Positions 23,237-62,231 of a stretch of DNA of 64,000 bases are shown one piece after another. The stretch's first letter is position 1, and each line of letters opens with the position of its first letter. The stretch lies in NCBI GenBank assembly GCA_902797145.1, contig CADBRR010000020.1, forward strand, positions 13,725 to 77,724, written 5' to 3'. The translations under genes were made by a program, and so were the position numbers. This DNA comes from an uncultured Eubacteriales bacterium (GTDB lineage: Bacteria > Bacillota > Clostridia > Christensenellales > CAG-138). The notes beneath the pieces are model-generated. The model saw only the letters and a program-made list of their open reading frames with translations, had not been told where the DNA came from and searched no databases.

Positions 23237-23293
23237 TTTAATTTTTCCTCCTTATATTTCCAATGAATTTTTATTTTATTTCCGTATATTTTT

Positions 23294-23339
23294 ACAACAT
23301 TTAGTTTTTAATTAACATTTTAAGCACTACATCTTGTTA
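23294..23339 (-). promoter_or_regulatory. Candidate tandem NrdR boxes in the nrdD leader (weak)
   Basis: Box at 23324-23339 (gCACTAcATcTTGTta) matches ~11/16 of the acaCwAtATaTwGtgt consensus as I recall it. A weaker box at 23294-23309 lies 30 bp away. A TTGACA-17-TAAAAT promoter sits at 23383-23355. Confidence 0.3.
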
Positions 23340-23488
23340 TTGCGTGCATTACCTATTTTATTCCTGAATTGGATTTCTGTCAAGTAGGATATTGAAAATT
23401 TTTTAAGTTAATACTATACTTATATTGAAAATAACCGATTTTTTCGGGGAAAACTAATAAAAAAATTTTTTGAAGGGAGAACTTATCC

Positions 23489-24034
23489 ATGATAGAAAAA
23501 ATAAGGAAGCAGGCACAAGATGTAGTATGTGAGTTGTTTTCAAACATACCCGATATAAGAAAAGGGCAAATTCTTGTAGTTGGTTGTTCAACGAGCGAGA
23601 TAATGGGAAAGTGCATCGGAACAGGTTCAAGCGAAGAAGCGGCGCAGGCAGTTATGGATGCGATACTTCCCAAGGTAAAGGAATACGGATTATATCTTGC
23701 AGTTCAATGCTGTGAGCATTTAAACAGAGTTCTTGTAGTAGAGCGTGAGTGTATGGAAAAATTCGGATTCACTCAGGTTTGCGTTAAACCGCAGCTCCAC
23801 GCAGGCGGAGCATTTGCAGTGGAAGCTACAAAACGCTTTGACGATTATGTTATGGTAGAGGATATTCAGGGCAAAGCGGATATGGGCATTGATATAGGCG
23901 GTGCGTTCATCGGAATGCATATGCACCCGGTTGTAGTTCCTATCCACGCAAACAACAGATATATTGGCGAGGCTTATGTTATGATGGCACGAACAAGACC
24001 AAAATACGTAGGCGGACCACGAGCTGCTTATTAA
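23489..24034 (+). CDS. TIGR01440/DUF436 (UPF0340) family protein
   Basis: 181 aa; GQILVVGCSTSEI...LAVQCCEHLNR is characteristic of the family. GGGAGA RBS; TTGAAA-17-TATACT promoter at 23393. Confidence 0.85.
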   Translation: MIEKIRKQAQDVVCELFSNIPDIRKGQILVVGCSTSEIMGKCIGTGSSEEAAQAVMDAILPKVKEYGLYLAVQCCEHLNRVLVVERECMEKFGFTQVCVKPQLHAGGAFAVEATKRFDDYVMVEDIQGKADMGIDIGGAFIGMHMHPVVVPIHANNRYIGEAYVMMARTRPKYVGGPRAAY

Positions 24035-24091
24035 TAACATATCTTTTATGTTTAAATTTCAATAATCGATATGAGGGCACTCCATTAAATA

Positions 24092-24120
24092 TTGACAATT
24101 TAGGTAAATTTAATTATAAT
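24092..24120 (+). promoter_or_regulatory. Perfect consensus sigma-A promoter (TTGACA-17 nt-TATAAT)
   Basis: ttgaca at 24092-24097 and tataat at 24115-24120, with an exact 17-nt spacer. No protein-coding ORF lies downstream. Confidence 0.75.
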
Positions 24121-24126
24121 TGAAAT

Positions 24127-24375
24127 ATCATATGTCGGGTCTGTGGTTGAAAGTCGATGCCAGTCGCAGGCGAAGCGATCCACGTAAGCAGATATTAAAA
24201 AAATAAATATCTATCCTATCTGTGAGCATGGTGCGGTTTAGATGTAAGTCCGTCCGCCTTATGGCGAGAGGAGTAGTAGTGGGGACGAAATAAGTTATGA
24301 GCGAACCTCCCTGACGGCGAGTGTGGGGTCAAAGACCAGGTCAGCCGACATTGATAAATTGATAATGAAAAAAAT
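24127..24375 (+). ncRNA. Unclassified structured small RNA (~250-280 nt including the terminator)
   Basis: Bounded by the consensus promoter and a terminator. It is GC-richer than the flanking sequence. A closing helix pairs GTCGG(24134-) with CCGAC(-24350). Internal hairpins include gtcgc-aggcgaa-gcgat, agatatt-A-rich loop-aatatct and cgcc-ttat-ggcg. There is no RBS-preceded ORF. Confidence 0.6.
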
Positions 24376-24408
24376 TCGGTCAGCGTTTATCGCTGACCGA
24401 TTATTTTA
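24376..24408. terminator. Bidirectional intrinsic terminator (sRNA on +, prs on -)
   Basis: tcggtcagcg-tttat-cgctgaccga is a 10-bp perfect stem. ttatttta follows on the plus strand and attttttt on the minus strand. Confidence 0.85.
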
Positions 24409-24421
24409 TATGATATTTATT

Positions 24422-25426
24422 TTAATTTTTAAAGCTCCATTCAACAACTCTTTCCTTAAGCCTTTTATAAATATCCGTTGTTGCTTCGTGGTTATGTATT
24501 GTCTTTACAGCTTCTGCAAAGAGAGGAGCTGCTGAGATAATCTTAATCTTATCTGAAGCTTCTATTTCGGGGCAGTAAACAGTATCAGTCGATACGAGCA
24601 TCTTAATCGGGCTTTCGTCAATCTTCTTTACGCCTTTTTCACCAAGAACAACGTGTGATAAGAATGCGTAAATATCTTTTGCGCCCTGTTCTTTAAGTCC
24701 ATGGGTTACATCAACGAGTGTGCCGCCTGAGATTGTGAAGTCATCAATTACGAGGCAGTTCTTGCCCTTAACATCACCGATAATTCCGAGAACCTTTGCA
24801 TTTTCATCGTGACCTGTTCTTACTTTATCGCCAATAGCCACTTCGCAGCCAAGAATGTTTGCAAGCGACCTTGCACGCTTTGCGCTGCCTGCATCAGGTG
24901 AAACAACTACGAGGTTATCATCAACTATTCCAATATGCTTTGCATATTCTGCGAGCAATTCCCTGCCATGGATATGGTCGAGCGGTTTTTTGAAGAAGCC
25001 CTGAATCTGATCTGCGTGCAAATCCATTGTAATAACTCTATCTGCGCCTTCAAGTTCGATACATTCTGCGCAAACCCTTGCACGGATTGATGTTCTCGGT
25101 TCGTCCTTCTTATCGCCCTTTGCATAGCTGAAATAAGGAATGATTACCGTTACAGATGCTGCACTTGCACGCTTGAACGCATCAATCCAGAAAAGAAGCT
25201 CTGTAAACTCGTTATTAGGTTTTTTACCGATAGTCTGTACAATATAAACATCCTGATTACGAACGCATTCATCAACACGAACGAAAGTGTTGCCTTCTGA
25301 AAAGTTTATAACTGTCGATTTACCGAGCTGAACTCCAAGATATTCGCACATCTTTGTTGCAAATGCAAGGCTTGAACTACCTGCATAGATTTTGATTTCA
25401 CCATTTACATCTGTCATGATAATCAC
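24422..25426 (-). CDS. prs: Ribose-phosphate pyrophosphokinase
   Basis: 334 aa with the DLHADQIQGFF and VIDDFTISGGTL PRPP motifs. TTGATA-17-TATAAT promoter at 25481-25453. Confidence 0.93.
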   Translation of the reverse strand: MIIMTDVNGEIKIYAGSSSLAFATKMCEYLGVQLGKSTVINFSEGNTFVRVDECVRNQDVYIVQTIGKKPNNEFTELLFWIDAFKRASAASVTVIIPYFSYAKGDKKDEPRTSIRARVCAECIELEGADRVITMDLHADQIQGFFKKPLDHIHGRELLAEYAKHIGIVDDNLVVVSPDAGSAKRARSLANILGCEVAIGDKVRTGHDENAKVLGIIGDVKGKNCLVIDDFTISGGTLVDVTHGLKEQGAKDIYAFLSHVVLGEKGVKKIDESPIKMLVSTDTVYCPEIEASDKIKIISAAPLFAEAVKTIHNHEATTDIYKRLKERVVEWSFKN

Positions 25427-25581: not shown

Positions 25582-26322
25582 TTATGCTTCAAGAAGTCCG
25601 AACTTTGTCTTGACTCTATCGAGCTTATTAAGCAACGGATTAGTAAGCAGCGCAAGGAAAATAATCGTTGCAACTGCATGGATAATATTATAAATAACAC
25701 CCGATGCGTACATTGCGAGCAACGCTTCCCACGTTATCGTCTGCGAGAACATAAAAAGCGATGCTGTATCCATAATAACACCATATATTATAAATGTTGA
25801 TAGTCCTCCGAAAATACATATCGAAATTAGATTCCTTTTAAGCATTCCCTTTTTATAGAGAACACCTGCCAAGAACCCGATAATTCCGAACGAGAACATC
25901 TGCCACGGAGTCCACGGTCCTTGACCGAAGAAGAAGTTAGAAATAAATCCAGCGCAAGCGCCCACTATAAAACCCGACTCTCCGCCGAACGCAATTCCCG
26001 AAATAATAACGATAGCCACAACAGGCTTAAACTGCGGCAGCATATAGAATGCGCCTCTGCCTGCAACCGCAAGCGCAATCATAACCGCAAGGATTACAAG
26101 TTCCCTCGCCTGAGGTCGCCTCGACTCGAATTTAAGCACGAAAGGAACTGCGCTAAGTATTATAATTCCGATACTTATAATATAATACTGCCTATCTTTC
26201 ATAAGCAATATTCCTGCTGCGATAAGCGCAGGTATGAAAATCAATATTATAATCGCTGCAAGAACAGTTCGTTTGCCGAGTTTTGTATCCTCTGTTATAG
26301 ACCTTGTCTTTGTTTCCTGCAT
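25582..26322 (-). CDS. ECF transporter substrate-specific (S) component, likely corrinoid-specific by context
   Basis: 246 aa with about 6 TM helices. It is the last gene of the riboswitch operon and overlaps the ATPase gene by 28 nt. Substrate is inferred from the riboswitch only. Confidence 0.75.
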   Translation of the reverse strand: MQETKTRSITEDTKLGKRTVLAAIIILIFIPALIAAGILLMKDRQYYIISIGIIILSAVPFVLKFESRRPQARELVILAVMIALAVAGRGAFYMLPQFKPVVAIVIISGIAFGGESGFIVGACAGFISNFFFGQGPWTPWQMFSFGIIGFLAGVLYKKGMLKRNLISICIFGGLSTFIIYGVIMDTASLFMFSQTITWEALLAMYASGVIYNIIHAVATIIFLALLTNPLLNKLDRVKTKFGLLEA

Positions 26323-27935
26323 AGTGCAACTACCTCCTCGGTAAGAACTGCGTTTTCAAATACGCTCCTTGCAATTCTATTTGCGGCTGTCGTGTAGAAA
26401 TGATTCTTTGCAAAGAACGTACGAGGTTCGTTTTCGCTTATTATTGTTCCGTCAAAGAACAGACCGCATCTATCCGCATACTTTGCTGCAAACTCTACAT
26501 CGTGCGAAACCATAATTATCGAAATTCCCTTTGAAGTCATATTTTTAAGCATTGAACCGAACTTTTCTTTAAACGATGCGTCCATACCCTTTGTAGGTTC
26601 ATCAAGCAGCAATATTTCAGGTTCTGTAAGCAAAAGCTTTGCAATAGCAGTCCTCTGCTGTTCGCCACCGCTCAAATCAAACGGATGTGACCCCAGCAAT
26701 TCACGAATGTTCATAAGCTCAATTATATCTTTAAGCTTTTTCTCATCATTCGTTATCTCTTTTAAATCTTCAAGAACAGTATTTTTTACAAACAGCGTTC
26801 GTGGGTCTTGACAGAGTGCGCCAATCTTATAGTCCCTTGCTTGGAAACGCTTTTGTACTTTTCCGTTTATCTTTATTTTGCCTCTATACGGGGTATTCAA
26901 ACCGCTTATAATTGAAAGTGTCGTACTCTTGCCTGTACCATTACCTCCGACTAAGCAAAATATTTCGCCCTTATATGCTTTGAGCGACACGCCCTTTAAT
27001 ATATCGTTGCCCTGCTTTTCATATCTGAAAAAACATTCGTCAAGTTCAAGTACGGGTTCGGTATTTACAGCGTTATTTTCCTTGCTCTCAAGTTTTTCGC
27101 CTTTAAGATTCAAAGAGTTTATAAAATTTCTTCCGTCACGAACTGTCAGGGGACAATCGCATGACTTGTTCGTTTCTATCAGTCTAAACATTCTTGCAGA
27201 TGCCGGCAAGGATTTAAATACATCTTCTTCGATATTGATTTTCTTTGAAACCTCTTGTGGCGTATCAAAAAGCTCTATCTTGCCGTTTTTCATAACAACT
27301 GTTCTATCGGCAATACAGAAAGCTTCTTCAAGCCTGTGTTCAGTCATAATGACAGTAACTCCAAGCTCCGTATTTATTTTTTTTACTGTATTTAAAAACT
27401 CGCTTGCGGCAATAGGGTCAAGCTGACTTGTAGGCTCGTCAAGAATAAGAATTTGAGGATTCATAGCCATTATTGAAGCGAGGTTTAAAAGCTGTTTCTG
27501 ACCGCCTGAAAGCTCCGTAACCGATTTATAAAACCAGTTCTGTATTCCGAAATAGCTTGCCATTTCGCCAACACGAAGGCGCATTGTCGTCTGATCATAG
27601 CCAAGGCTTTCAAGCCCGAATGCCAGTTCGTGCCACACCTTATCCGTAACTATCTGGTCGTCTGGATGCTGCATTACAAAGCCAATATTAGATGCCTGTT
27701 CCCTATCTGAATATTCGCCGAGTGGTTTATCGTTTATAAACACTTGACCTGTTCTCTCTCCATATGGAGTTAATACGCTTTTGAAATGCCTTAAAAGCGT
27801 ACTTTTCCCGCAACCTGAATTACCGCATATAAGCATAAATTCACCATCACGAACGTCAAGATTTATATTTTCGAGCGCATTTTTATCTGATTTAGGATAT
27901 CTGAATGTCAGATTTTCGATTCTAAGCGTCGCCAT
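26295..27935 (-). CDS. ECF transporter ATPase, fused tandem A-A' domains
   Basis: 546 aa with two ABC cassettes: GNSGCGKST/SGGQKQ/ILDEPTS and GGNGTGKST/SGGEQQR/LLDEPTKG. Confidence 0.92.
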   Translation of the reverse strand: MATLRIENLTFRYPKSDKNALENINLDVRDGEFMLICGNSGCGKSTLLRHFKSVLTPYGERTGQVFINDKPLGEYSDREQASNIGFVMQHPDDQIVTDKVWHELAFGLESLGYDQTTMRLRVGEMASYFGIQNWFYKSVTELSGGQKQLLNLASIMAMNPQILILDEPTSQLDPIAASEFLNTVKKINTELGVTVIMTEHRLEEAFCIADRTVVMKNGKIELFDTPQEVSKKINIEEDVFKSLPASARMFRLIETNKSCDCPLTVRDGRNFINSLNLKGEKLESKENNAVNTEPVLELDECFFRYEKQGNDILKGVSLKAYKGEIFCLVGGNGTGKSTTLSIISGLNTPYRGKIKINGKVQKRFQARDYKIGALCQDPRTLFVKNTVLEDLKEITNDEKKLKDIIELMNIRELLGSHPFDLSGGEQQRTAIAKLLLTEPEILLLDEPTKGMDASFKEKFGSMLKNMTSKGISIIMVSHDVEFAAKYADRCGLFFDGTIISENEPRTFFAKNHFYTTAANRIARSVFENAVLTEEVVALCRKQRQGL

Positions 27936-28810
27936 GTTATGTCCTCCATTATATTGAGTATCATGGGCAAATTACAAAACAGCAAAAATGCCAAGTAGCC
28001 CAATATTGATAACGCACCCTCTGCGTTCATTCTTATTGACGGATAATATCTTACATATATTTTTCCACTAATTATACTTGCAGCAAAAATCAATGCAGCA
28101 ATAACGAATATGAGCAGTACCATTTTATCCCTCTTATCAAACTTATATAAAGAATATGCTGTTCTGCCTTTAAGTCCATATCCTCTGCTTTTCATTGAAT
28201 CCGCTGTCACAACTGCATTTTCAAGCGCCCATGTAATAGTTATTGAAAGCACTCGAACACCAGCTATGAGCCTTTTCATAATGTTTCCGTCTTTAACGCT
28301 CCTGCCTATGCTTTCCTGTGCCTTTGAAACTTCCTTTATCTGATGCGAAAATTTAGGCACAAACCTCAATGCCATAGACAATAACAACGACAAGGCAGGT
28401 ATTATCCTGCCAAATAAATATATAAATTTATCCGATGTCATTATATGATTATAGCATGAAAACCACACTATAACGCTGCCGAACATTCCCGAAGCGGCAA
28501 CCCCATATAATACTGCTTCAAGCGTAATAGGATTTCCATTTGATAAATAAAACAGCGTTGTAACACCGGCGTGATTAAACAGCGGATTCATAACCGCCGT
28601 AATAATCATAAGCGGCAAAACTCCAAACAGTTGGAGCTTTACTGCCTTTGCGCCTTTTAAATATATCGCATACACCATTGCTGATATAAGTGATGTCGCA
28701 AGCACTATCGGGTGCATCATAAACATTGTTATAAACAACACCCATACAAAATACAGCATTTCTACTGACGGATGAAGCGTTGAAAACGTATCTCGTTTTT
28801 TCATCTGCAA
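27908..28810 (-). CDS. ECF transporter transmembrane (T) component, CbiQ/EcfT family
   Basis: 300 aa, multi-pass, with an ARGxxxR-type coupling-helix region (MKSRGYGLKGR). It sits between the lipoprotein and ATPase genes. Confidence 0.85.
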   Translation of the reverse strand: MQMKKRDTFSTLHPSVEMLYFVWVLFITMFMMHPIVLATSLISAMVYAIYLKGAKAVKLQLFGVLPLMIITAVMNPLFNHAGVTTLFYLSNGNPITLEAVLYGVAASGMFGSVIVWFSCYNHIMTSDKFIYLFGRIIPALSLLLSMALRFVPKFSHQIKEVSKAQESIGRSVKDGNIMKRLIAGVRVLSITITWALENAVVTADSMKSRGYGLKGRTAYSLYKFDKRDKMVLLIFVIAALIFAASIISGKIYVRYYPSIRMNAEGALSILGYLAFLLFCNLPMILNIMEDITWRRLESKI

Positions 28811-28828
28811 TAATTGTCCTTTATTTTA

Positions 28829-29977
28829 TTATTCACCTGCTATCCATCCGCCGCCTACATCACGGCCTAAATCACAAGTATATCTCCATTCGCAGACATC
28901 GCCATCCTGAAGAATATATCTTGAACAGCCATAATTTGGATACCAGCCGTTTACCCTGAACATCCAACCCGAAAGCTGACCACAATCAAACTCATAAAGA
29001 TTGCCAATTCCCTCAATATATGCGCTATCATATGCAGGTGTCCACGATGCTTCAAGATGAATATTGTTTTCACGGCAAACCCTCTGCAATACATCAAATA
29101 CTGATTCGCCTGCGCTGAACTCAACTGTTACAGCCTTTAATATAACACCATCTTTAGGAAGTATATCGAGTTTTTCAGAGCTTAAATCTCCAAGATTATT
29201 AAAAATTGTTGAACATTCGATTGAGAATGTACAATGCCATTTTTTTGACTCATCAACCTTTTGATCTTCGGGATTTACAGGCTCCTGTTTTCCGCTCGGT
29301 ACGGGATCTGTTTGATACTTATCCTGTTCATTTCTCGTTCCATCAGAAATTTTAACGCTGCCTGCTTCGCCAAGCTTCGTTGTTGAACCTGAAAGATATT
29401 CGTCCTGCTCATTAGTGTTCTGAGGGTCGATATCGCCTTGATTTTCAGGATTATTGTTATAATCAACAACAGCTTCTTTATGCTCGTCACCCTTTACGAT
29501 ATATTCCTTAATCCCCTGTTTGATTGAGAAATTTATGATTGACGGAGTACCTGTCGTTATTGATGCGCCGCAAAGCGAGTTATAATTTACATCAAATACT
29601 GTTGCAGTAAGTGCTTCCCAGCTTTCAGGAACATATACTGAAAGGACTGTATTAAAATCAACATCTCCATTTAAAGTTACCTTAAAGCTTTCGTTTTCAT
29701 AAAGCTCAACGATAACGGACATATCCGTATCCTTTGCATCGCTAATATCTGAACCGAATACTGTCCATTCATATTTTATTCCATTCTTATCCGTACCTGT
29801 AAGCGTAAGAACGGAATTATCATTCTTTATTTTTGAAAAAGTGCTTTTTGAAACTATACCGTTTTCGGGTATTTCAACCTTGCCCGAAAAAACAGTATCA
29901 TTAGCGGCAGTCGAACAGCCTACAGCCATTACAGCCATAAGCAGCGACAACAAAATTATAAATGCACGTTTAATCAT
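28829..29977 (-). CDS. Lipoprotein with a C-terminal DUF4430 (transcobalamin-like beta) domain
   Basis: Lipobox LMAVMAVG-C. A low-complexity linker rich in D/E/Q/P/N. C-terminal FDVLQRV...YIEGIGNLYEFDCGQLSGWMFRVNGWYPNYGCSRYILQDGDVCEWRYTCDLGRDVGG. Confidence 0.85.
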   Translation of the reverse strand: MIKRAFIILLSLLMAVMAVGCSTAANDTVFSGKVEIPENGIVSKSTFSKIKNDNSVLTLTGTDKNGIKYEWTVFGSDISDAKDTDMSVIVELYENESFKVTLNGDVDFNTVLSVYVPESWEALTATVFDVNYNSLCGASITTGTPSIINFSIKQGIKEYIVKGDEHKEAVVDYNNNPENQGDIDPQNTNEQDEYLSGSTTKLGEAGSVKISDGTRNEQDKYQTDPVPSGKQEPVNPEDQKVDESKKWHCTFSIECSTIFNNLGDLSSEKLDILPKDGVILKAVTVEFSAGESVFDVLQRVCRENNIHLEASWTPAYDSAYIEGIGNLYEFDCGQLSGWMFRVNGWYPNYGCSRYILQDGDVCEWRYTCDLGRDVGGGWIAGE

Positions 29978-30650
29978 CAGCTATTGTCCTCCCATCAACG
30001 GTATTAAGAGTATTTTTCGTCATAGCAAGGCTCTGCGAGCTATCCGATGCTGCAAGAACCGCATCTTCAATTACGAAATTCATTACATCGCCTTTAATTA
30101 CACTGCCACGAAGTTTGAATTTGAGCCTTACAAGGATATTTCTATCCTCTTTACTAAATCCTTCGCTCGTAAAAGCATACTTGCCTGCTGTTTGGTCGAG
30201 GTACATAATATTTATAAGCCCGATATCGTTTGAACGCTCATTATTTACGCCCCAATTCGGCAAATCGAAGCCATTATCAGCAAGCACAAACACGTTACCT
30301 TCCTCTATGCCCATAAACTCAAGCCTTGATTTATCAAATGAAATCGAAAAGCTTGCAGCAGGGTACAATACGCCCTCAGGCATATCTGAAAGAGGTATAT
30401 CTATAGTAAATTCCCTATCGCCCGATATACTTACTTTTGAAGGTACATCAAGTTTAATTGTAGGTTTGGCGTAGTTTTTCCTCAGTATAAAAAACAGCGT
30501 TACACCCAATGCGATAAGCAATAATATAAGCAAAATTATAAGAAGAATTCTTTTTTTCTTTTTCTTTTCTTCCTGTTCTTGTTCTGTTATTTTAATATCA
30601 TTTATCTGTTCCATAATCTTGAATAAATGCGTTTTAACGCAACTTCCCAT
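29970..30650 (-). CDS. N-terminally TM-anchored cohesin-like protein
   Basis: 226 aa. A Lys-rich stretch precedes one TM helix (ILLIILLILLLIALGVTLFFIL). Then a ~150-aa beta-domain follows with a cohesin-like pattern (FTIDIPLSDMP..ASFSISFDKSRLEFMGIEEG...LVRLKFKLRG). The start codon is uncertain (30650 or 30614). Confidence 0.65.
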   Translation of the reverse strand: MGSCVKTHLFKIMEQINDIKITEQEQEEKKKKKRILLIILLILLLIALGVTLFFILRKNYAKPTIKLDVPSKVSISGDREFTIDIPLSDMPEGVLYPAASFSISFDKSRLEFMGIEEGNVFVLADNGFDLPNWGVNNERSNDIGLINIMYLDQTAGKYAFTSEGFSKEDRNILVRLKFKLRGSVIKGDVMNFVIEDAVLAASDSSQSLAMTKNTLNTVDGRTIADD

Positions 30651-30766
30651 ATTTTTTATCAGGGCAGAAGTTGCCTCCTGCCCTCTTTCTAATTTTCACG
30701 AGCTTCTATTTATGAATGGAGTATATCTGAAGCTGTGTATTATTTCATTCCCCTATAATTATAAGA

Positions 30767-33547
30767 TTAGTTTGCGCTGAATCTTGCACCGTATGTTACA
30801 ACGATGAATTCTGTGCCGTTTACGAAGTTATCAACGATACCAAGTGCATCATATGTGTTGATTCTTGAATCGCCGTTTACGTTCATTGCGAGCATTGTAT
30901 CGTCAGTTGTAACTTCTGTCTTTCTGAGCCATGCGTTTACTGTATCAAGTGCATCCTGTGCATTGATAACGCCGTCAGCGTTTACATCACCGAATGTGAT
31001 TGAAGCAGGTGTACCTGCAACCATTGTATAGTTAGCAACCTTGTTCATTTCGTCCATTGATGTTTCAGCTGCAACCATTGTTACGTATGTAGCAACGCCT
31101 GTCTTATCTGAAAGCTGCTTGTTGTAACGGAGAACTGTACCGTCTGTGTATGTGATTGTTGTTGCGACTTCGAGTTCTGTTACGAGTACTGCAACTGCCT
31201 TCTTGTCAGCAGGAATGATGTCGATGCCATCGCCTGTGTAGAGTTCATATGCGAATACTGCAACTTCCTTCTTGAGTTCTGATGTTGCCTTTGATGAATC
31301 TGTCATTGTGTTGATTACATGAATCATCTTAGGATCCTGTGAATCGCTGCCGAGCTTCAATGACATACCTGTGATTGCGAAATCAACTGTCTTAGCTTCG
31401 AGAACTTCGTCCATTGTGAATGTTACTGTGAACAAGTCAGCCGGGAATTCTGTAGCGTTTACAACAACGTTTTCATATGTTTCAAGGTTTGCATATACAA
31501 CACGGAGTTTGCCTGTTGCTTCTTCAACATAGTAATATACGCTGCCGCCTGTGAGGTTATTTGTAGCCTGAACGTCTGTTACTCTGAGTCCTTCAGGAAC
31601 TGTAACTATCATATCAACGAGCTTATAATCCTTTGTGCTGTCCCAACCTGTAAGACCGATCTGTGCATTGAATGTTGAACCAGCCTTGTTTGTTACGATA
31701 GCGGGAGTGTTGATATATGATTCAATCTTGAGGAAACCGTTTTCATCGTATTCGGGATTTACGGGTTCTTCTGTCATAACGTCTGTCATATCATAAAGGC
31801 GTGTCTTACCATCGAGCATTCTCTGGTATGAAACAAGTGTGTAGAGAGCCTGTTCTGTAGCCATGCCATCAACACTACCTGTAGCAACATGCTTGAAAGC
31901 ACCGTTATCATAGAAGCTCATGAGTGCATCAACGAGTGAAATATTGTTCTTTATAAATCTTTCATCTTCCTGAGGATCAATGCCCAATGCAACGAGTGCA
32001 CAGATTGTCTGTGAAATGCTTTCTGAGCTTGTAGAACCCCATGATGTGTAGCCACCTTCATCGTTCTGGTTAGCTGAAAGCCATACGAGTGCTTCGTCTA
32101 CTGCTGTCTTTACTGCTTCGTTTGTTGTGTAGTAAGGAGCAAGTGCCTGGATTGTCATTGATGTAATATCAACATCAGCCTTTGTGCCTGAAAGTCCCCA
32201 GCCACCTGTTGCACACTTCTTTTCAACAATGTAGTTGATGAATTCGTTTCTCAAGTTAGCATCTGTTGTTTCATAGTTTCTTGAATCAAGTGCGATGAGT
32301 GCATAAACAGGACCATTGAGACCCTGCCATGATACATCTGACAATACATTCAAAGGAGCTACGATGTTCTTGCCAGCGATAGCTGTTGCATCCTTGTTAA
32401 TTGATGACAAACCGATAATAACTCTTGAGTTATCTGTAAGCTTTCTTGAATGGAGCTTACCTGCTTCTGTAGCGTGTTCGTTTACATATTCAACAACCTT
32501 TGTGTAGTAATCTGTGAAAATAGCATTGTCAAGGTCATACTTTTCTGATCTTGCAAGACCAAGAACTGCCCATTCACCACCTGTAGCACCAACGCTCAAG
32601 CCGTTAGTTTCTGCAAGATTATAAACATGTTCAAGTGTTGCATTGAGTGTATCTGTAATGTCAACTCTCTGATGTTCAGCGCCACCCTGTGCTGCTTCTA
32701 TCAACTGCTGTGCATCAATATCAATCTGGTTAGTGAGCAAATCAATGTCAGCCTGTTCTGTATTAAGAACCTTACAAGCTTCAACATATGCATCAATTGC
32801 TGTTGTAAAGTCATCGTTTGTGCCATAGAGTTCATTGCTCTTATACTTTACGATTGCCTGATAAAGAGCTGATCTGTTGCCTGCTGCATACAAAGGTTCC
32901 ATACCCCAAACCTGATCTGTACCAAGGTCTGCGCCATATCCATAGACTGAGAACTGCCAACGGATAACAGGAATGTTATTAACTACAGGGTAATCTGCGG
33001 GCTGATCGGGCTCGTTTACGAGGAGCCATGCGCCTGCGCCCTTGTTGATCATGTAATTGTTTACTGTTACCATCCAGCCTGCAGAGCTTGTGTAGTCAAA
33101 TTCACCAAGGTTAGCGTCTGAATTTGTTTCGCTTTCAATAAGTTCAACAAATGTTTCGTTTTCCATAAGGAAATCCGGGAATTCAGCAGGAACTGAAGGA
33201 TCATCTATATTGTCGATCGTGCCCATATAGAATGAATCTGAAGCCCAACCGTCACCTGTTGATTCAACAGTAATTCCGAGGCTATCAAATACATAGCCTG
33301 TTGCCATAGCTGCTGTGATAGCTTCTTTTTCAACATTGTACTTATTCATAATATCCTGATAAGCAACAAATGTAGGTTCGATAAAGAAGCCTTTACCGAT
33401 TGAAAGCCCTTCAAGACTTACGATACAACCTTCTTCAGCATCCTTTGTTGTAACAACAACATTCTTTGCTGCGAATGCGGTTGCAGACACTACTTGCAAT
33501 ACCATGAGCATTACAAGCAAAAATGCCACAAATTTTGTCTTCTTCAT
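30767..33547 (-). CDS. Secreted 926-aa protein: DUF4430 domain + prenyltransferase-like alpha/alpha-toroid repeats + cohesin-like module + C-terminal dockerin
   Basis: Signal peptide MKKTKFVAFLLVMLMVLQVVSATAFA. DUF4430-like SSAGWMVTVNNYMINKGAGAWLLVNEPD. Toroid repeats GGWGLSGTKADVDITSMTIQAL and NDEGGYTSWGSTSSESISQTICALVALG. Cohesin-like FNAQIGLTGW...LRVVYANL...FTVTFTM. Dockerin GDVNADGVINAQDAL...NVNGDSRINTYDAL at ~30815-30991. Confidence 0.85.
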   Translation of the reverse strand: MKKTKFVAFLLVMLMVLQVVSATAFAAKNVVVTTKDAEEGCIVSLEGLSIGKGFFIEPTFVAYQDIMNKYNVEKEAITAAMATGYVFDSLGITVESTGDGWASDSFYMGTIDNIDDPSVPAEFPDFLMENETFVELIESETNSDANLGEFDYTSSAGWMVTVNNYMINKGAGAWLLVNEPDQPADYPVVNNIPVIRWQFSVYGYGADLGTDQVWGMEPLYAAGNRSALYQAIVKYKSNELYGTNDDFTTAIDAYVEACKVLNTEQADIDLLTNQIDIDAQQLIEAAQGGAEHQRVDITDTLNATLEHVYNLAETNGLSVGATGGEWAVLGLARSEKYDLDNAIFTDYYTKVVEYVNEHATEAGKLHSRKLTDNSRVIIGLSSINKDATAIAGKNIVAPLNVLSDVSWQGLNGPVYALIALDSRNYETTDANLRNEFINYIVEKKCATGGWGLSGTKADVDITSMTIQALAPYYTTNEAVKTAVDEALVWLSANQNDEGGYTSWGSTSSESISQTICALVALGIDPQEDERFIKNNISLVDALMSFYDNGAFKHVATGSVDGMATEQALYTLVSYQRMLDGKTRLYDMTDVMTEEPVNPEYDENGFLKIESYINTPAIVTNKAGSTFNAQIGLTGWDSTKDYKLVDMIVTVPEGLRVTDVQATNNLTGGSVYYYVEEATGKLRVVYANLETYENVVVNATEFPADLFTVTFTMDEVLEAKTVDFAITGMSLKLGSDSQDPKMIHVINTMTDSSKATSELKKEVAVFAYELYTGDGIDIIPADKKAVAVLVTELEVATTITYTDGTVLRYNKQLSDKTGVATYVTMVAAETSMDEMNKVANYTMVAGTPASITFGDVNADGVINAQDALDTVNAWLRKTEVTTDDTMLAMNVNGDSRINTYDALGIVDNFVNGTEFIVVTYGARFSAN

Positions 33548-33570
33548 ATTAAGAAAACCTCCTTAGATTA

Positions 33571-33602
33571 ATAAAAAAGTGTATCACCGTCCGGGGATAC
33601 AT
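33571..33602 (-). terminator. Intrinsic terminator forming the riboswitch expression platform
   Basis: Minus strand reads tgtatcccc-ggac-ggtgataca (9-bp stem, one mismatch) followed by cttttttatt. It lies ~25 nt upstream of the AAGGAGG RBS of the 926-aa gene. Confidence 0.8.
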
Positions 33603-33689
33603 AAGCAAGCACATTCGTAGCACAAACTAACGAACTTCAAGAAATTTTATTTTAAATAAAACTGCTGTTTGCCCTCGTCTTTCCTCGAA

Positions 33690-33885
33690 ACGATTACAAT
33701 CAACAATGCGGCAGGTCTTCTGACTTATGGCCTCTTTGATATTCGCAGGGTAACTTACTCATATCACTTCCTACCAGCTCCGACTTCCCAAACAAATTAT
33801 GATTCGTTCAGTGTTAAATTGAGCTTTCGTTGCCACTTACAGCAGCGGGACTGTTACGGACTCTCACCGTATTCCCTTTTAATTT
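33690..33885 (-). promoter_or_regulatory. Cobalamin (AdoCbl-type) riboswitch
   Basis: Minus strand reads AAGGGAAUACGGUGAGAGUCCGUAACAGUCCCGCUGCUGUAA ... CACUG...GGGAAG ... B12 box AAGUCAGAAGACCUGCCGC (plus-strand 33708-33725). This matches the conserved core as I know it. Confidence 0.9.
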
Positions 33886-33921
33886 GATATATATCAATTT
33901 GTTTGTATTGATTTATATCAA
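33884..33921. repeat. Two tandem 14-bp palindromes TTGAT-N4-ATCAA between the promoter and the riboswitch
   Basis: 33884-33897 ttgatatatatcaa is a perfect palindrome. 33908-33921 ttgatttatatcaa has one deviation. Their centres are 24 bp apart. Confidence 0.6.
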
Positions 33922-33941
33922 AACCGTATCGTTACATAATA

Positions 33942-33970
33942 AGTATATCATTACCTCAAACCATTGTCAA
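33942..33970 (-). promoter_or_regulatory. Promoter of the riboswitch operon (TTGACA-17-TATACT)
   Basis: Minus strand reads gtgTTGACAatggtttgaggtaatgaTATACTt. The predicted TSS is near 33935, ~50 nt upstream of the riboswitch core. Confidence 0.65.
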
Positions 33971-34053: not shown

Positions 34054-34130
34054 TGGTAGCGGCAATCTGATTCGAACAGATGACACTCCGGGTATGAACC
34101 GAATGCTCTAGCCAGCTGAGCTATGCCGCC
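34054..34130 (-). tRNA. tRNA-Met (CAT), elongator type
   Basis: GGCGGCATAGCTCAGCTGGCTAGAGCATTCGGTTCATACCCGGAGTGTCATCTGTTCGAATCAGATTGCCGCTACCA folds as a cloverleaf. The anticodon loop is TTCATAC and CCA is encoded. Confidence 0.9.
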
Positions 34131-34146
34131 ATATTATTAACTTAAA

Positions 34147-34224
<78 letters not shown>

Positions 34225-34351: not shown

Positions 34352-34427
34352 GCTGATGTAGCTCAGTAGGTAGAGCACTTCATTGGTAATGAAGAGGTAG
34401 GCAGTTCGAATCTGCTCATCAGCTCCA
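34352..34427 (+). tRNA. tRNA-Thr (GGT)
   Basis: GCTGATGTAGCTCAGTAGGTAGAGCACTTCATTGGTAATGAAGAGGTAGGCAGTTCGAATCTGCTCATCAGCTCCA. TTGATT-17-TATAAT promoter at 34313-34341. Confidence 0.92.
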
Positions 34428-39421: not shown

Positions 39422-42400
39422 TTAGCAAACCTTTACGCCAAGCGTTACGCTTTCGCCATTGATATCCCATTCCTTAACGAAACCGTCTGCGCCCTTATTC
39501 ATCTCGTTTGCGAGCGTATCAGCCATAATATCGCCCTTATACTTTTCGATAATAGCGTCTATCTTTTCGCTGCCGTTATAGCTTATAGCGATATGGTCAG
39601 TTACCTCAAATCCTGCATCCTTACGCATTGTCTGTATCTTAGATACAAGTTCACGAACGAAGCCTTCTTCGATAAGTTCATCTGTCAATGTTGTATTGAG
39701 TACAACGCTCAAATCCCTATCGCTTTCAGCAACAAAACCATCACGCTGCATAGTTTCAACAAGCACATCTTCGCTTGAAAGTGAAACGTGTGTTCCCTCG
39801 ATATCAAACTCGTAATTTTCGCCTGCTTTATGCTTTGCAACTACTTCGTTACCGATATTTTCGCCCTGCAAATATGCGTTTATCTTCGGCAAAACCTTAC
39901 CGTAACGTGGTCCCAATGTTTTAAGCTGTGGCTTTACCCTATATGCGATGAATCCCGACGCATCTTCCATAAACTTAACGCACTTAACATTAAGTTCATC
40001 AGCGATTATTGATATGAACATTTCGGGAAGATTTCCGCCCTGAACGAACATTTCGCCGATAGGCTGACGGTTCTTGATATTTGCAGTATTTCTTGCGCTT
40101 CTGCCAAGAACTACTATCCTCAATACTTCGTCCATATTCTTTTCAAGTTCCTCGTCAATATATGAGTCATCTGCAACGGGAAAGTCACAAAGGTGAACGC
40201 TTTCGGGAGCTTTTTCATCAACGCTCTTTACTATATTCTGATAGATTTCCTCTGTTATGAACGGAACAAACGGTGCTGCGAGCTTTACAAATGTTGAAAG
40301 AACAGTATAAAGTGTCATATATGCAGCTTCTTTATCGTCCGTCATTTCGCTGCCCCAATATCTTTCACGGCAACGGCGAACATACCAATTTGACAAATCA
40401 TCAATAAATCTCTGCAATTCCCTGCCACCCTCAGTTATCTTGAGGTCATTGAGGTCGCTGTCAATTTCCTTTACAAGGCTATTAAGTCTTGAAAGAACCC
40501 ACTTATCCATTGCGGAGAGGTTTTCCTTTTTAAGGCTATGTTCTGTCGGATTGAACTTATCAATTTCAGCATACAGTACATAGAACGCATATGTGTTCCA
40601 CAAAGTACCCATAAACTTACGCTGTGATTCTGATACAGCAGTATCCGAGAACCTTGACGGCAGCCATGGCATTGAATTTGTATAGAAATACCACCTTACA
40701 GCATCTGCGCCCTGCTTATCAAGAACGCTCCACGGGTCAACAACGTTGCCCTTATGCTTTGACATTTTCTGTCCGTCCTTATCCTGAACAAGACCCAATA
40801 CGATACAGTTAAGGAATGCAGGATCATCGAACAAGCAAGCAGCAATTGCGCTCAGAGTATAGAACCAACCACGTGTCTGGTCAACAGCTTCGCTGATATA
40901 GTTTGCAGGGAATCTCTTTTCAAACTCTTCCTTATTTTCAAAGGGATAATGCCACTGTGCAAACGGCATTGAGCCTGAATCGAACCAACAGTCAATAACT
41001 ACCGGTTCCCTCTTCATAGTGCCGCCACATTCAGGGCACTTGAACGTAATCGGATCGAGGAACGGTTTATGAAGCTCAGTATTTACCGGTGCGCCTGTCA
41101 ACTCGTGAAGCTCTTCACGGCTTCCCATAACGTGGATATGACCGCATTCTGAGCACATCCATACAGGCAATGGAGTTCCCCAATATCGTTCTCTTGAAAT
41201 ACCCCAATCTATTACATTTTCAAGGAAGTTGCCCATTCTGCCATCTCTGATTGATTCAGGCAACCAATTTATCTTTCTATTATTTTCAAGCAGTTTATCA
41301 CGAACTGCTGTCATCCTTATGAACCAGCTTTCTCTTGCATAGTAGATAAGCGGAGTATCACATCTCCAGCAGAACGGATAGCTATGTTCAAATTCAAGTG
41401 TCCTAAACAGCTTACCGCTTGCTTTGAGTGTCTTTATAATTTCCTTATCTGCCTTTTTGCAGAACATACCGTCCCACGGTGTTCCGCCTGTCAAGCAACC
41501 CTTGCTGTCAACGAGCTGTACGAACGGCAAATCCCATTTTCTGCCAACTCTACCGTCATCTTCACCGAATGCAGGGGCGATATGAACGATACCTGAACCG
41601 TCTGTCAATGTTACATAATCATCCGATACGATTCTAAAACCTTTCTTGCCCTTATGATTTACCGGGAAGTCAAACAACGGTTCATATTCTATATTTTCAA
41701 GTTCTTTGCCCTTGAATTTTTCAATTATAACAGCATTTTCGCCAAGAACCTTTTCAACGAGTGCTTCAGCCATAATAAGCTTTTCGCCCTCAAATTCTAC
41801 CTTAACATAATCTTCATCAGCATTTACGCAAAGCGCAACGTTTGACGGAAGCGTCCAAGGCGTAGTAGTCCATGCAAGGAATGATGCATCGCCATTTACC
41901 ATTGGGAATTTAGCAAATACAGATGTTTCCTTAACATTCTTATAACCCTGTGCTACTTCGTGTGATGAAAGCGCCGTTCCGCATCTCGGACAATAAGGTA
42001 CTATCTTATGACCTTTATAGAGTAATCCCTTTTCATAAATCTTTTTAAGTGCCCACCATTCTGACTCGATATAGTTATCATCGTATGTAACGTACGGATT
42101 TTCCATATCTGCCCAATAGCCTACACGGTCGCTCATGCGTTCCCACTCGCTCTTATATTTCCATACGGATTCTTTGCATTTCTTGATAAAATCTTCAACG
42201 CCGTATGCTTCGATCTGTTCTTTGCCATCAAGACCAAGCATCTTTTCAACTTCAAGCTCAACCGGCAAACCATGTGTATCCCAGCCTGCTTTTCTCAATA
42301 CATCGTAACCCTTCATTGTTCGGTAGCGAGGTATAATATCCTTCATAGTTCTTGTGAGGATATGTCCGATATGCGGCTTTCCGTTAGCCGTTGGTGGGCC

Positions 42401-42535
42401 ATCGAAGAATGTGAAAGGTTCTTTGCCCTTTCTCCATTCCATGCTCTTTTCAAAAATCTTGTTTTCTTTCCAGAAAGCTAAAACTTCCTGCTCTCTTGAT
42501 ACGAAATCAAGTGTCGTACTAACTTTCTTGTACAT
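39422..42535 (-). CDS. ileS: Isoleucine--tRNA ligase, type 2 (long, eukaryote-like C-terminus)
   Basis: 1037 aa with HIGH-type PHIGH and KMSKS (KMSKHKGN). Preceded by an Ile-specific T-box. Confidence 0.95.
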   Translation of the reverse strand: MYKKVSTTLDFVSREQEVLAFWKENKIFEKSMEWRKGKEPFTFFDGPPTANGKPHIGHILTRTMKDIIPRYRTMKGYDVLRKAGWDTHGLPVELEVEKMLGLDGKEQIEAYGVEDFIKKCKESVWKYKSEWERMSDRVGYWADMENPYVTYDDNYIESEWWALKKIYEKGLLYKGHKIVPYCPRCGTALSSHEVAQGYKNVKETSVFAKFPMVNGDASFLAWTTTPWTLPSNVALCVNADEDYVKVEFEGEKLIMAEALVEKVLGENAVIIEKFKGKELENIEYEPLFDFPVNHKGKKGFRIVSDDYVTLTDGSGIVHIAPAFGEDDGRVGRKWDLPFVQLVDSKGCLTGGTPWDGMFCKKADKEIIKTLKASGKLFRTLEFEHSYPFCWRCDTPLIYYARESWFIRMTAVRDKLLENNRKINWLPESIRDGRMGNFLENVIDWGISRERYWGTPLPVWMCSECGHIHVMGSREELHELTGAPVNTELHKPFLDPITFKCPECGGTMKREPVVIDCWFDSGSMPFAQWHYPFENKEEFEKRFPANYISEAVDQTRGWFYTLSAIAACLFDDPAFLNCIVLGLVQDKDGQKMSKHKGNVVDPWSVLDKQGADAVRWYFYTNSMPWLPSRFSDTAVSESQRKFMGTLWNTYAFYVLYAEIDKFNPTEHSLKKENLSAMDKWVLSRLNSLVKEIDSDLNDLKITEGGRELQRFIDDLSNWYVRRCRERYWGSEMTDDKEAAYMTLYTVLSTFVKLAAPFVPFITEEIYQNIVKSVDEKAPESVHLCDFPVADDSYIDEELEKNMDEVLRIVVLGRSARNTANIKNRQPIGEMFVQGGNLPEMFISIIADELNVKCVKFMEDASGFIAYRVKPQLKTLGPRYGKVLPKINAYLQGENIGNEVVAKHKAGENYEFDIEGTHVSLSSEDVLVETMQRDGFVAESDRDLSVVLNTTLTDELIEEGFVRELVSKIQTMRKDAGFEVTDHIAISYNGSEKIDAIIEKYKGDIMADTLANEMNKGADGFVKEWDINGESVTLGVKVC

Positions 42536-42564
42536 AGCATTTCCTTTCCTGTTCTATCTATAAT

Positions 42565-42846
42565 ATCAAATAAAAATAACGCAATCATCATACAGGACGA
42601 AATGCGTTTTCCGTGGTACCACCTGAATTGTAATAATCATAATAAACATTATAACTTTACCGCTCATTTTCCTTTAACGCAGGAATACGTACAACATTAC
42701 AACTAATAAAATATGTTTTATAGCTTCACATCATCGCTCACAGGTGATATTCATTTTCCCGAACTGTACCGCACTCACACCAACTGCGGCTCGCTTAACC
42801 TCTTGGGAAACTACTTGTCCCGCTCATCGCTTTACTATCAATATCT
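42565..42846 (-). promoter_or_regulatory. T-box leader, Ile specifier (AUC), with a terminator/antiterminator
   Basis: Minus strand shows, in order: stem I (AGCGAUGAGCGGG...), distal GGUGUGAGUGCGG, specifier region GAAUAUCACC, T-box AAUUCAGGUGGUACCACGG, and a terminator aacgca..tgcgtt+AUUUUUAUUU. TTGCAA-17-TATAAT promoter at 42881-42853. Confidence 0.85.
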
Positions 42847-61347: not shown

Positions 61348-61376
61348 TTGACAATATTTGGAAAGTATTATATAAT
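61348..61376 (+). promoter_or_regulatory. Perfect consensus promoter (TTGACA-17-TATAAT) starting a ~330-nt leader
   Basis: ttgaca at 61348-61353 and tataat at 61371-61376. Confidence 0.7.
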
Positions 61377-61469
61377 TTTACTAACCAATACGGAATAATT
61401 TAATGTCTATTAGTAATTAAACAAAATCCGTAGTAAATGTATGGTTGCAAATAACTTTGCGGAGGTGAT

Positions 61470-61523
61470 ATGTTGCGACAACAACGTGCATTTACATATC
61501 GTATAACTTATACGAATAAATAA
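61470..61523 (+). CDS. Candidate 17-codon upstream ORF / leader peptide (MLRQQRAFTYRITYTNK)
   Basis: GGAGGTG lies 4-5 nt before the ATG. A 10-bp hairpin (cgctttatga/tcataaagcg, 61527-61565) follows immediately. It is too short for the ORF track. Coding status is unproven. Confidence 0.3.
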   Translation: MLRQQRAFTYRITYTNK

Positions 61524-61712
61524 GCCCGCTTTATGACTCTGTCGCCAAACTGAACTCATAAAGCGAGCAAGCGTTCATTTGAGGGGCTGTCGCACCCTTT
61601 TCAAATCGAACAATAATATTATACCCGATTTTTATCAAAAATGCAAGTATGAGGGTAAAAGTTTGGCACGCTTGCATAAATTAAAATCTAATTAAATGAA
61701 AGGAGTACTTTT

Positions 61713-62231
61713 ATGAAAAAGTATTTAGCATTGATACTCGCTATCGTAATGATAGTAGCAGTATTCTCACAGACAGCAATGGCTGTAACGTATGCACCGC
61801 ATAGCTGGTCAAGTTGGCCTACACAATCTACAAGCAATTACAAAAAATGGCCTACTATCGTAGTTAAGCGTTATATCAATGAAGCTTATGGCACAAGTTT
61901 TTCTTACACCAGCGGAACTTATACAATAAGTGTAAAGGCACGAGCTTTGATGCTTCAAAATGCATTAAATAACACCGGCAATTATACATTAACAGAAGAT
62001 GGCATTGTGGGCTCTAATACTTGGTATGCCATGCAACATGAACTCTGCCTAAGTGCACACAATAATGCTCGTGATGCTTATAAAGTCTATCACATTGATA
62101 GTTCTAATTATTTCTTAGAAGATACGGTTGGCGTTGCAACTTCCTATTGTTGGGATAAAGTTAATAATAAATGGTGTCTTAATACATCATCAAATGCTTC
62201 AGTTGCAACATGGGAGCTTGTATCATATTGA
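61713..62231 (+). CDS. Secreted protein with a putative peptidoglycan-binding (PG_binding_1-like) segment
   Basis: Signal peptide ending AMA-V. LQNALNNTGNYTLTEDGIVGSNTWYAMQ resembles PG-binding domain repeats. AAAGGAG RBS. Confidence 0.7.
   Translation: MKKYLALILAIVMIVAVFSQTAMAVTYAPHSWSSWPTQSTSNYKKWPTIVVKRYINEAYGTSFSYTSGTYTISVKARALMLQNALNNTGNYTLTEDGIVGSNTWYAMQHELCLSAHNNARDAYKVYHIDSSNYFLEDTVGVATSYCWDKVNNKWCLNTSSNASVATWELVSY

Follow-up and report, generated by a model that had tools for sequence, protein, structure and literature searches.

The intergenic region between a DUF436 gene and prs, in a stretch of 64,000 nucleotides from contig CADBRR010000020.1 (the 64-kb window, to which all coordinates refer), contains, as we hold with high confidence, a gene that encodes the raiA motif RNA (ModT), a free-standing, trans-acting and highly structured bacterial noncoding RNA of a known family. 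Positions 24130-24353 of the plus strand (224 nt) matched the raiA RNA family RF03072 with 185.6 bits against a gathering threshold of 101.3 (E = 2.4e-47), and the match extended over model positions 1-209 of 209 without truncation. It was the only copy of RF03072 when the whole window was scanned against Rfam 15. A permissive local scan with E-values up to 1 returned no competing family except for a meaningless 23-bit snoRNA match on the terminator. Membership of the raiA family is near-certain. The motif was described in 2017, has since been studied genetically, and its structure has been solved by cryo-EM (PMC5737381, PMC10861870, PMC12286853, PMC12968392).

The original prediction, made from the letters of the sequence, had recognised a structured RNA at this place but headed it as unclassified and possibly a novel class. 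That headline is refuted by the RF03072 score, whereas a raiA-motif-type RNA, named there as one of the possibilities, proved to be the correct assignment. A scan of all of Rfam had been proposed as a check, a confident match being taken to mean an annotated rather than a novel RNA, and this is the result that was obtained: the locus is a standard copy of the raiA family and not a new class. The prediction was also right in setting aside SRP RNA, tmRNA and RNase P RNA, none of which appeared in the full or the permissive Rfam scan.

Rfam assigns RF03072 the type 'Cis-reg; riboswitch', whereas the literature describes a trans-acting RNA with a P3/PK1/PK2 core. Automated annotation would therefore mislabel a raiA gene as a riboswitch.

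Fold and conservation of the raiA RNA

In the Rfam model PK1 is represented as a nested helix and P3 is not modelled. Because this nested structure departs from the published one, the architecture described by Soares et al. 2024 (PMC10861870) and, from cryo-EM, by He et al. 2026 (PMC12968392) was threaded onto the window sequence by hand. All 58 pairs were canonical, those of PK1 and PK2 included. The ends of the core are held together by P1, whose 5' strand lies at 24132-24147 (P1a 24132-24138, GU bulge 24139-24140, P1b 24141-24143, P1c 24144-24147) and whose 3' strand lies at 24335-24351 (P1c 24335-24338, GGU bulge 24339-24341, P1b 24342-24344, P1a 24345-24351). P1a, P1b and P1c thus comprise 7, 3 and 4 bp. 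Both bulges, which are conserved in the family together with a remarkably conserved P1 (PMC12968392), are present. The pairing of a 5' GUCGG...UGGU with a 3' ACCA...CCGAC, noticed in the original prediction, is formed by P1a and P1c. In place of P2 the sequence has the GAA of a GAA(A) tetraloop-like turn at 24149-24151 (U-GAA-A, 24148-24152). These nucleotides are U19-G20-A21-A22-A23 in the numbering of the Clostridium acetobutylicum RNA (Ca-raiA), and their columns are invariant in the alignment of 63 sequences described below. By homology the fourth A of the turn would be 24332, reached through a tertiary contact. Since P2 is missing, the copy belongs to the P2-less subtype, like the raiA RNA of C. 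acetobutylicum.

The P3 hairpin occupies 24153-24179 (P3a 24153-24156/24176-24179, P3b 24159-24161/24169-24171). It has an asymmetric A-rich internal loop (AU/GAAG), the kind of loop by which P3a-P3b is bent in the family, and its apical loop (24162-24168) donates one strand of PK1, in which GUCGCA (24163-24168) forms six canonical pairs with UGCGGU (24232-24237). P4 is likewise canonical, with CCAC at 24180-24183 and GUGG at 24323-24326, and PK2 consists of two canonical pairs between UG (24229-24230) and CA (24330-24331). PK1 is connected to P6 by the single-stranded linker UUAGAUGUAA (24238-24247). It matches the conserved UUAGAnGUAA, which has been proposed as a recognition site for KhpA-KhpB or another partner (PMC12968392). 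The P6-P7-P8 domain follows at 24250-24317 (P6 24250-24254/24313-24317, P7 24255-24258/24263-24266, P8 24270-24286/24294-24310). An E-loop-type AGUA/GAA motif was identified by sequence only, within 24274-24278 and at 24303-24305. A P6-P7-P8 domain with an E-loop occurs in 68% of raiA members, the alternative being a simple P6 hairpin.

Searching with a 21-mer taken from P1 and the GAA(A) turn yielded no fewer than 120 copies in genomes of Acidimicrobiia, Veillonella, Clostridia and others, a phylogenetic spread that equals the known range of the raiA family, whose hosts are expected among Bacillota or Actinomycetota. For the alignment, 62 relatives of similar length were combined with the window copy. 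As the relatives were chosen by the shared 21-mer, the sample is biased towards similar sequences. With the threaded structure 95.4% of the alignment cells were paired, compared with 29-44% when the 3' partners were slid by 1-3 columns. Changes on both sides were seen in 28 pairs, and none of 500 shuffles reached the observed covariation score. Five pairs of P1a were changed on both sides, while P1b and P1c were invariant and P4 was identical in 63/63 sequences. P3 was paired in 100% of cells. The same was true of the six pairs of PK1, four of which were changed on both sides. In PK2 the first pair was U-A 56 times and C-G 5 times, the second G-C in 59 sequences. The P5 stem covaried, and P6, P7 and P8a each showed 3-4 pairs changed on both sides, with 98-99% of cells paired. 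The linker consensus was TTAGAnGTAA. Among the 62 relatives 100 columns reach a conservation of 95% or more, and the window copy carries the consensus base at every one of them; in the raiA family about 50 nucleotide positions are conserved at 97% or more. Covariation in relatives, which had been suggested as a further check, is strong.

The peculiarities of this copy are minor, and one of them concerns P5. This hairpin (24187-24194/24217-24223) has a stem of 7 bp and a 22-nt A-rich loop at 24195-24216 (UUAAAAAAAUAAAUAUCUAUCC), and it is the hairpin with an A-rich loop that had been noticed originally (24187-24223). P5 measures 36 nt here, compared with 18-20 nt in the nearest relatives, and is longer than in all 62 aligned sequences. 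The loop accounts for about 18 extra nucleotides, which are also absent from the nearest DUF436-linked relatives, and the core is 224 nt long, whereas the median of relatives is 208 nt. A direct repeat of TATCT within the loop suggests a small duplication. The canonical P5 stem is the minimum-free-energy fold and makes up 61% of the ensemble. An alternative inner hairpin, AGAUAUU/AAUAUCU, can be drawn on paper but is not favoured by the thermodynamic fold. In the cryo-EM structures P5 is a variable and flexible peripheral arm (PMC12968392), and for this reason the expansion is read as ordinary variation. That the enlarged loop serves as a species-specific binding platform, a weaker variant of the partnership with DUF436 considered below, is improbable. 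From this copy it can be seen that an A-rich expansion of 18 nt is tolerated in the peripheral P5 arm.

Transcription unit and proposed function

Upstream of the core lies a promoter of the sigma-70/SigA type at 24092-24120 on the plus strand. With a -35 box TTGACA (24092-24097), a spacer of 17 nt and a -10 box TATAAT (24115-24120) it matches the consensus at 12/12 positions, just as originally described. The window contains two such perfect TTGACA-17-TATAAT promoters, compared with 0.00 expected from 100 shuffles. From promoter spacing alone the transcription start would be at about 24127-24130. The first P1a pair is at 24132, and the -10 box ends 11 nt upstream of this position, so that there would be almost no 5' leader before P1. 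Promoters matching at least 10/12 positions were found directly upstream of P1 in 41/106 relatives and in 0 shuffled controls.

At the other end the RNA is followed by an A/U-rich 3' linker (24354-24375, plus strand), which is outside the conserved family model, and by a bidirectional intrinsic terminator at 24376-24408. A tandem 8-mer, two copies of ATTGATAA at 24350-24365, overlaps the last two P1a pairs and extends into this linker. The terminator consists of a stem-loop at 24376-24400, after which the plus strand is U-rich as far as about 24408, with a T-run at 24366-24375 for prs on the minus strand. Its stem is perfect, with 10 pairs (7 of them G-C) around a 5-nt loop, and the hairpin folds with -20 kcal/mol (z = -5.6). 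Because T-runs stand 3' of the stem on both strands, the terminator can serve the raiA RNA as well as the convergent prs, in agreement with the original description. Among relatives a terminator within 120 nt downstream of raiA was predicted in only 15/104. This matches the statement that some ModT orthologues have no predicted terminator (PMC11706538).

A primary transcript of about 280 nt, with a layout like that of ModT(L), is predicted from these elements. The raiA RNA has a G+C content of 49%, compared with 25-33% in the adjacent intergenic DNA, so that the relative GC-richness first pointed out for it is real. The whole transcript folds with z = -2.7 relative to shuffles. The lists of open reading frames (at least 30 aa up to position 27000 and at least 110 aa beyond) contain no credible frame inside the raiA RNA and no plausible plus-strand gene between it and the tRNA gene at 34352. 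The plus-strand frames that are listed before 34352 are short or lie inside larger minus-strand genes. The original view that there is neither a reading frame with a Shine-Dalgarno sequence nor a plus-strand gene downstream was borne out, and the gene layout is that of a free-standing noncoding RNA gene reaching from promoter to terminator rather than of a cis leader.

The following course of events can be proposed. Transcription would start at the consensus housekeeping promoter some 3-5 nt before P1. The 224-nt core at 24130-24353 would then take up the published raiA fold, in which P1b and P1c clamp a compact core made up of P3a-P3b, P4 and the pseudoknots PK1 and PK2. P1a, P5 and the P6-P7-P8 domain would project as peripheral arms, leaving the linker exposed. 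Transcription would stop at the hairpin 24376-24400, and the product would be an RNA of about 280 nt that can be compared with ModT(L). The 3' hairpin probably shields this transcript from exonucleases, and trimming to a core form of about 225 nt may occur.

What such an RNA might do in the cell is indicated by work on its homologues. In both C. acetobutylicum and C. difficile raiA/ModT is very abundant (PMC10861870, PMC11706538), and by homology the RNA of the present locus should rank with the most abundant RNAs of its cell. The high expression that was originally held to be probable is consistent with this abundance and with the consensus promoter. Deletions can be complemented by plasmid-borne or ectopic copies and by orthologues from other species, such as those of C. 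perfringens and P. sordellii, which demonstrates action in trans (PMC10861870, PMC11706538). Loss of raiA in C. acetobutylicum reduces sporulation and aggregation (PMC10861870). C. difficile without modT is late in entering stationary phase, has more c-di-GMP, sporulates less and produces more toxin (PMC11706538). The raiA RNA is monomeric, its fold is new and intrinsically stable (PMC12286853, PMC12968392), and the KhpA-KhpB heterodimer binds it in vitro at about 2 micromolar, possibly at the UUAGAnGUAA linker (PMC12968392). Roles as a ribozyme or as a receptor for cyclic dinucleotides are proposals only. The reading to which we commit ourselves is that the gene would make an abundant, stable, trans-acting RNA whose three-dimensional fold serves as a protein- or ligand-binding component in the control of growth-phase transitions. 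The role in growth-phase transition is probable by homology. The presence of an own promoter and a strong terminator and the absence of a cis target agree with action in trans.

Several points weigh against this reading. The phenotypes described in the literature concern above all the sporulation of Clostridium species, whereas the source of the window looks like a cellulosome-bearing member of the Clostridia from rumen or gut. The protein partners of raiA are disputed. The transcript ends, abundance and isoforms at this locus are derived by analogy. Finally, comFC and hpf, the usual neighbours, are absent from the whole 64-kb window. raiA lies downstream of comFC in 74% of cases and upstream of raiA/hpf in 66% (PMC10861870). 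When the proteins from three canonical loci (L049, L076 and L002) were used as queries, the only match was the phosphoribosyltransferase motif shared with prs. The missing genes are not counted against family membership, because the published survey notes that contexts vary (PMC10861870).

In terms of annotation, a seemingly empty intergenic region of 390 nt acquires an RNA gene with a name. Little is gained for work on raiA/ModT: one more natural copy has a consensus promoter of its own, ends in a strong terminator and has nothing that it could regulate in cis. The locus documents a clade-limited adjacency of DUF436 and raiA and does not advance the biochemical question.

Gene neighbourhood and alternative explanations

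As had been stated from the beginning, the RNA lies between a DUF436 gene and a convergent prs. The upstream neighbour, on the same strand, is a DUF436/UPF0340 gene at 23489-24034 (PF04260, 229 bits). On the other side prs, for ribose-phosphate pyrophosphokinase, occupies 24422-25426 of the minus strand (Pribosyltran_N, 126 bits, together with Pribosyl_synth and Pribosyltran). The upstream side of the locus comprises genes for a two-component system, TrkH/TrkA, NrdG, NrdD and DUF436, and prs and an ECF transporter operon follow downstream. Homologues of the DUF436 protein with known structure (PDB 1V8D and 7Z06) are deposited only as 'hypothetical protein' or 'UPF0340 protein'. The exact DUF436 protein, with a 100% identical intergenic region, was found on three European Nucleotide Archive (ENA) metagenome contigs that have the same gene order and are 99.9% identical. 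The nearest raiA relatives and the nearest DUF436 relatives come from metagenome-assembled genomes of Clostridia.

The association of DUF436 and raiA might be thought to indicate a functional coupling, such that co-transcription would place raiA in the 3' part of the mRNA of DUF436 and both products would cooperate. DUF436 stands directly upstream of raiA on the same strand in 7/120 raiA loci, while the other flanks vary. Conversely, raiA follows a DUF436 homologue on the same strand after 100-440 nt in 15/66 informative metagenome loci. The pair was recorded in the window (23489-24353), in L068, L097, L111, L010, L016, L040 and L041, and in L124-L133, L139-L146, L156 and L176. Terminator prediction in the gap that separates raiA from the upstream reading frame gave nothing in any of 15 loci scanned (13 of these frames had a DUF436-type C-terminus), so that co-transcription by read-through from DUF436 into raiA is possible. 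Sorted by identity, however, the linkage holds for 8/8 loci at 65% or more and for only 7/58 below. Because it decays with divergence in this way, the adjacency looks like synteny within a clade of gut and rumen Clostridia rather than a functional partnership. At the present locus raiA is preceded by a perfect promoter of its own, and in relatives -10 boxes are found. DUF436 also occurs in Thermus and Staphylococcus, while there are few if any raiA genes in Bacilli (Soares et al., PMC10861870), and most raiA genes adjoin comFC and hpf (PMC10861870). Functional coupling of this kind is for these reasons improbable. We consider it about as improbable that the DUF436 (UPF0340) protein is a lineage-specific functional partner of the raiA RNA, although such a partnership, if true, would provide a protein handle on raiA/ModT biochemistry. 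The adjacency is absent from the main text of the published survey of raiA gene contexts (PMC10861870).

In seven relatives that carry the pair (L124, L130, L131, L132, L111, L040 and L041) raiA has no terminator, and a small zinc-ribbon open reading frame (MFQDKTLVCKDCG...) follows on the same strand at a distance of about 45-190 nt. In the four loci that were read in sequence, L124 and L130-L132, a Shine-Dalgarno-like AAGGGGA precedes this frame, which begins about 45 nt downstream of raiA. The zinc-ribbon gene was looked for in the 64-kb window and is absent; prs and the terminator stand in its place.

A cis-acting riboswitch or leader, with the terminator at 24376-24400 as its expression platform, would be in line with the Rfam type of RF03072 and with the position of the terminator within about 25 nt of an aptamer-like fold. 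Such an element requires something to regulate. No plausible plus-strand gene is listed before the tRNA gene at 34352, the next gene being the convergent prs and those after it also lying on the minus strand. The lack of a downstream gene on the same strand thus rules out a cis-regulatory role at this locus as far as gene layout is concerned. No anti-terminator is evident, the terminator doubles as that of prs, and the rarity of a closely following terminator in relatives (15/104, see above) also counts against an expression platform. The complementation of deletions in trans in two species (PMC10861870, PMC11706538) points the same way, and we regard a cis-acting element as very improbable.

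The convergent layout raises the further idea that the main local role of the transcript is transcriptional interference with prs or its antisense control, by read-through from the very strong promoter, given that the shared terminator is only 22 nt from the prs stop codon. This terminator is strong, however, and the close relatives examined have no prs downstream but the small zinc-ribbon frame on the same strand. It is the family fold, not complementarity to prs, that accounts for conservation of the RNA. Such a role appears extremely improbable.

6S RNA had also been offered as a possibility, and an RNA of this kind that sequesters RNA polymerase would share with the present one a probable abundance, a link to growth phase and paired ends. 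That suggestion did not hold. No match to RF00013 was found even at E-values up to 1, the multi-arm pseudoknotted core is not a long duplex with a central bubble, and the RNA is positively assigned to raiA, so that a 6S-like function has next to no chance of being correct. As for a new, unclassified RNA class, the RF03072 match, the threaded structure, the covariation and the conserved columns leave it no support in a family described in 2017 whose structures are solved, and its probability is practically nil.

Some further features of the window deserve mention. Its second perfect TTGACA-17-TATAAT promoter (61348-61376, plus strand) is followed by about 335 nt without an open reading frame of 50 aa or more and then by a frame of 172 aa with a hydrophobic N-terminus (61713-62231, plus strand). 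The leader, 61348-61712, contains a 10-bp hairpin at about 61527-61565. Neither an Rfam match, even at E-values up to 1, nor a terminator was obtained for it, and it could represent an uncharacterised RNA or a regulatory leader of some length. A cobalamin riboswitch (33693-33943, minus strand, 101.6 bits) heads a run of minus-strand genes at 25582-33943. These encode a dockerin/DUF4430 protein of 926 aa, a cohesin-like protein, a second DUF4430 protein, a protein of 300 aa without Pfam match, a double ABC ATPase and an ECF S-component. The run looks like a B12-controlled uptake system with anchoring modules of the cellulosome type, and its dockerin and cohesin genes suggest that the source is a cellulosome-bearing member of the Clostridia. 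Three tRNA genes (34057-34130 and 34150-34224 on the minus strand, 34352-34424 on the plus strand) adjoin the cobalamin riboswitch. A T-box leader (42590-42836, minus strand, 112.7 bits) lies upstream of a class I aminoacyl-tRNA synthetase of 1037 aa with the domains tRNA-synt_1, Anticodon_1 and DUF5915 (39422-42836 together). The divergent intergenic region between nrdD and DUF436 (23237-23488) has a G+C content of 25-27% and no Rfam match.

Comparison with known RNAs

The raiA RNA resembles OLE RNA in being large, widespread, highly conserved, intricately folded, abundant and single-copy in Gram-positive bacteria, with a biochemical function that is not fully defined (PMC10861870). The two have no kinship in sequence or structure. 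The dedicated protein partners of OLE RNA are encoded nearby, unlike the case of raiA, which has no established partner gene.

In its transcription unit the locus is closer to ModT of C. difficile, which is made from a single SigA promoter as a core form of 215 nt and a more stable form of 260 nt ending at an intrinsic terminator (Lence et al. 2024, PMC11706538). Like ModT(L), the window copy has a single SigA-type promoter, a conserved core and a non-conserved 3' extension to an intrinsic terminator, and its predicted length of about 280 nt compares with 260 nt. It differs in having a terminator that is shared with a convergent gene. At the end of P1 the window copy shows no evident site of internal termination, and the existence of two isoforms here would follow from analogy with ModT.

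Compared with typical raiA loci, the window copy has DUF436 and prs as neighbours instead of comFC and hpf; as an RNA it shares with RF03072 the full-length covariance-model match and all near-invariant nucleotides. The closest structural counterpart is Ca-raiA (PDB 9ELY and related entries), a P2-less RNA with P7-P8. The window copy departs from this subtype by a P5 loop that is about 18 nt longer and by a weak apical P8 of 3 bp. The same stems and bulges, the GAA(A) turn at 20-22, P4 with CCAC/GUGG, PK1, PK2, the UUAGAnGUAA linker and the AGUA/GAA E-loop motif are shared by both.

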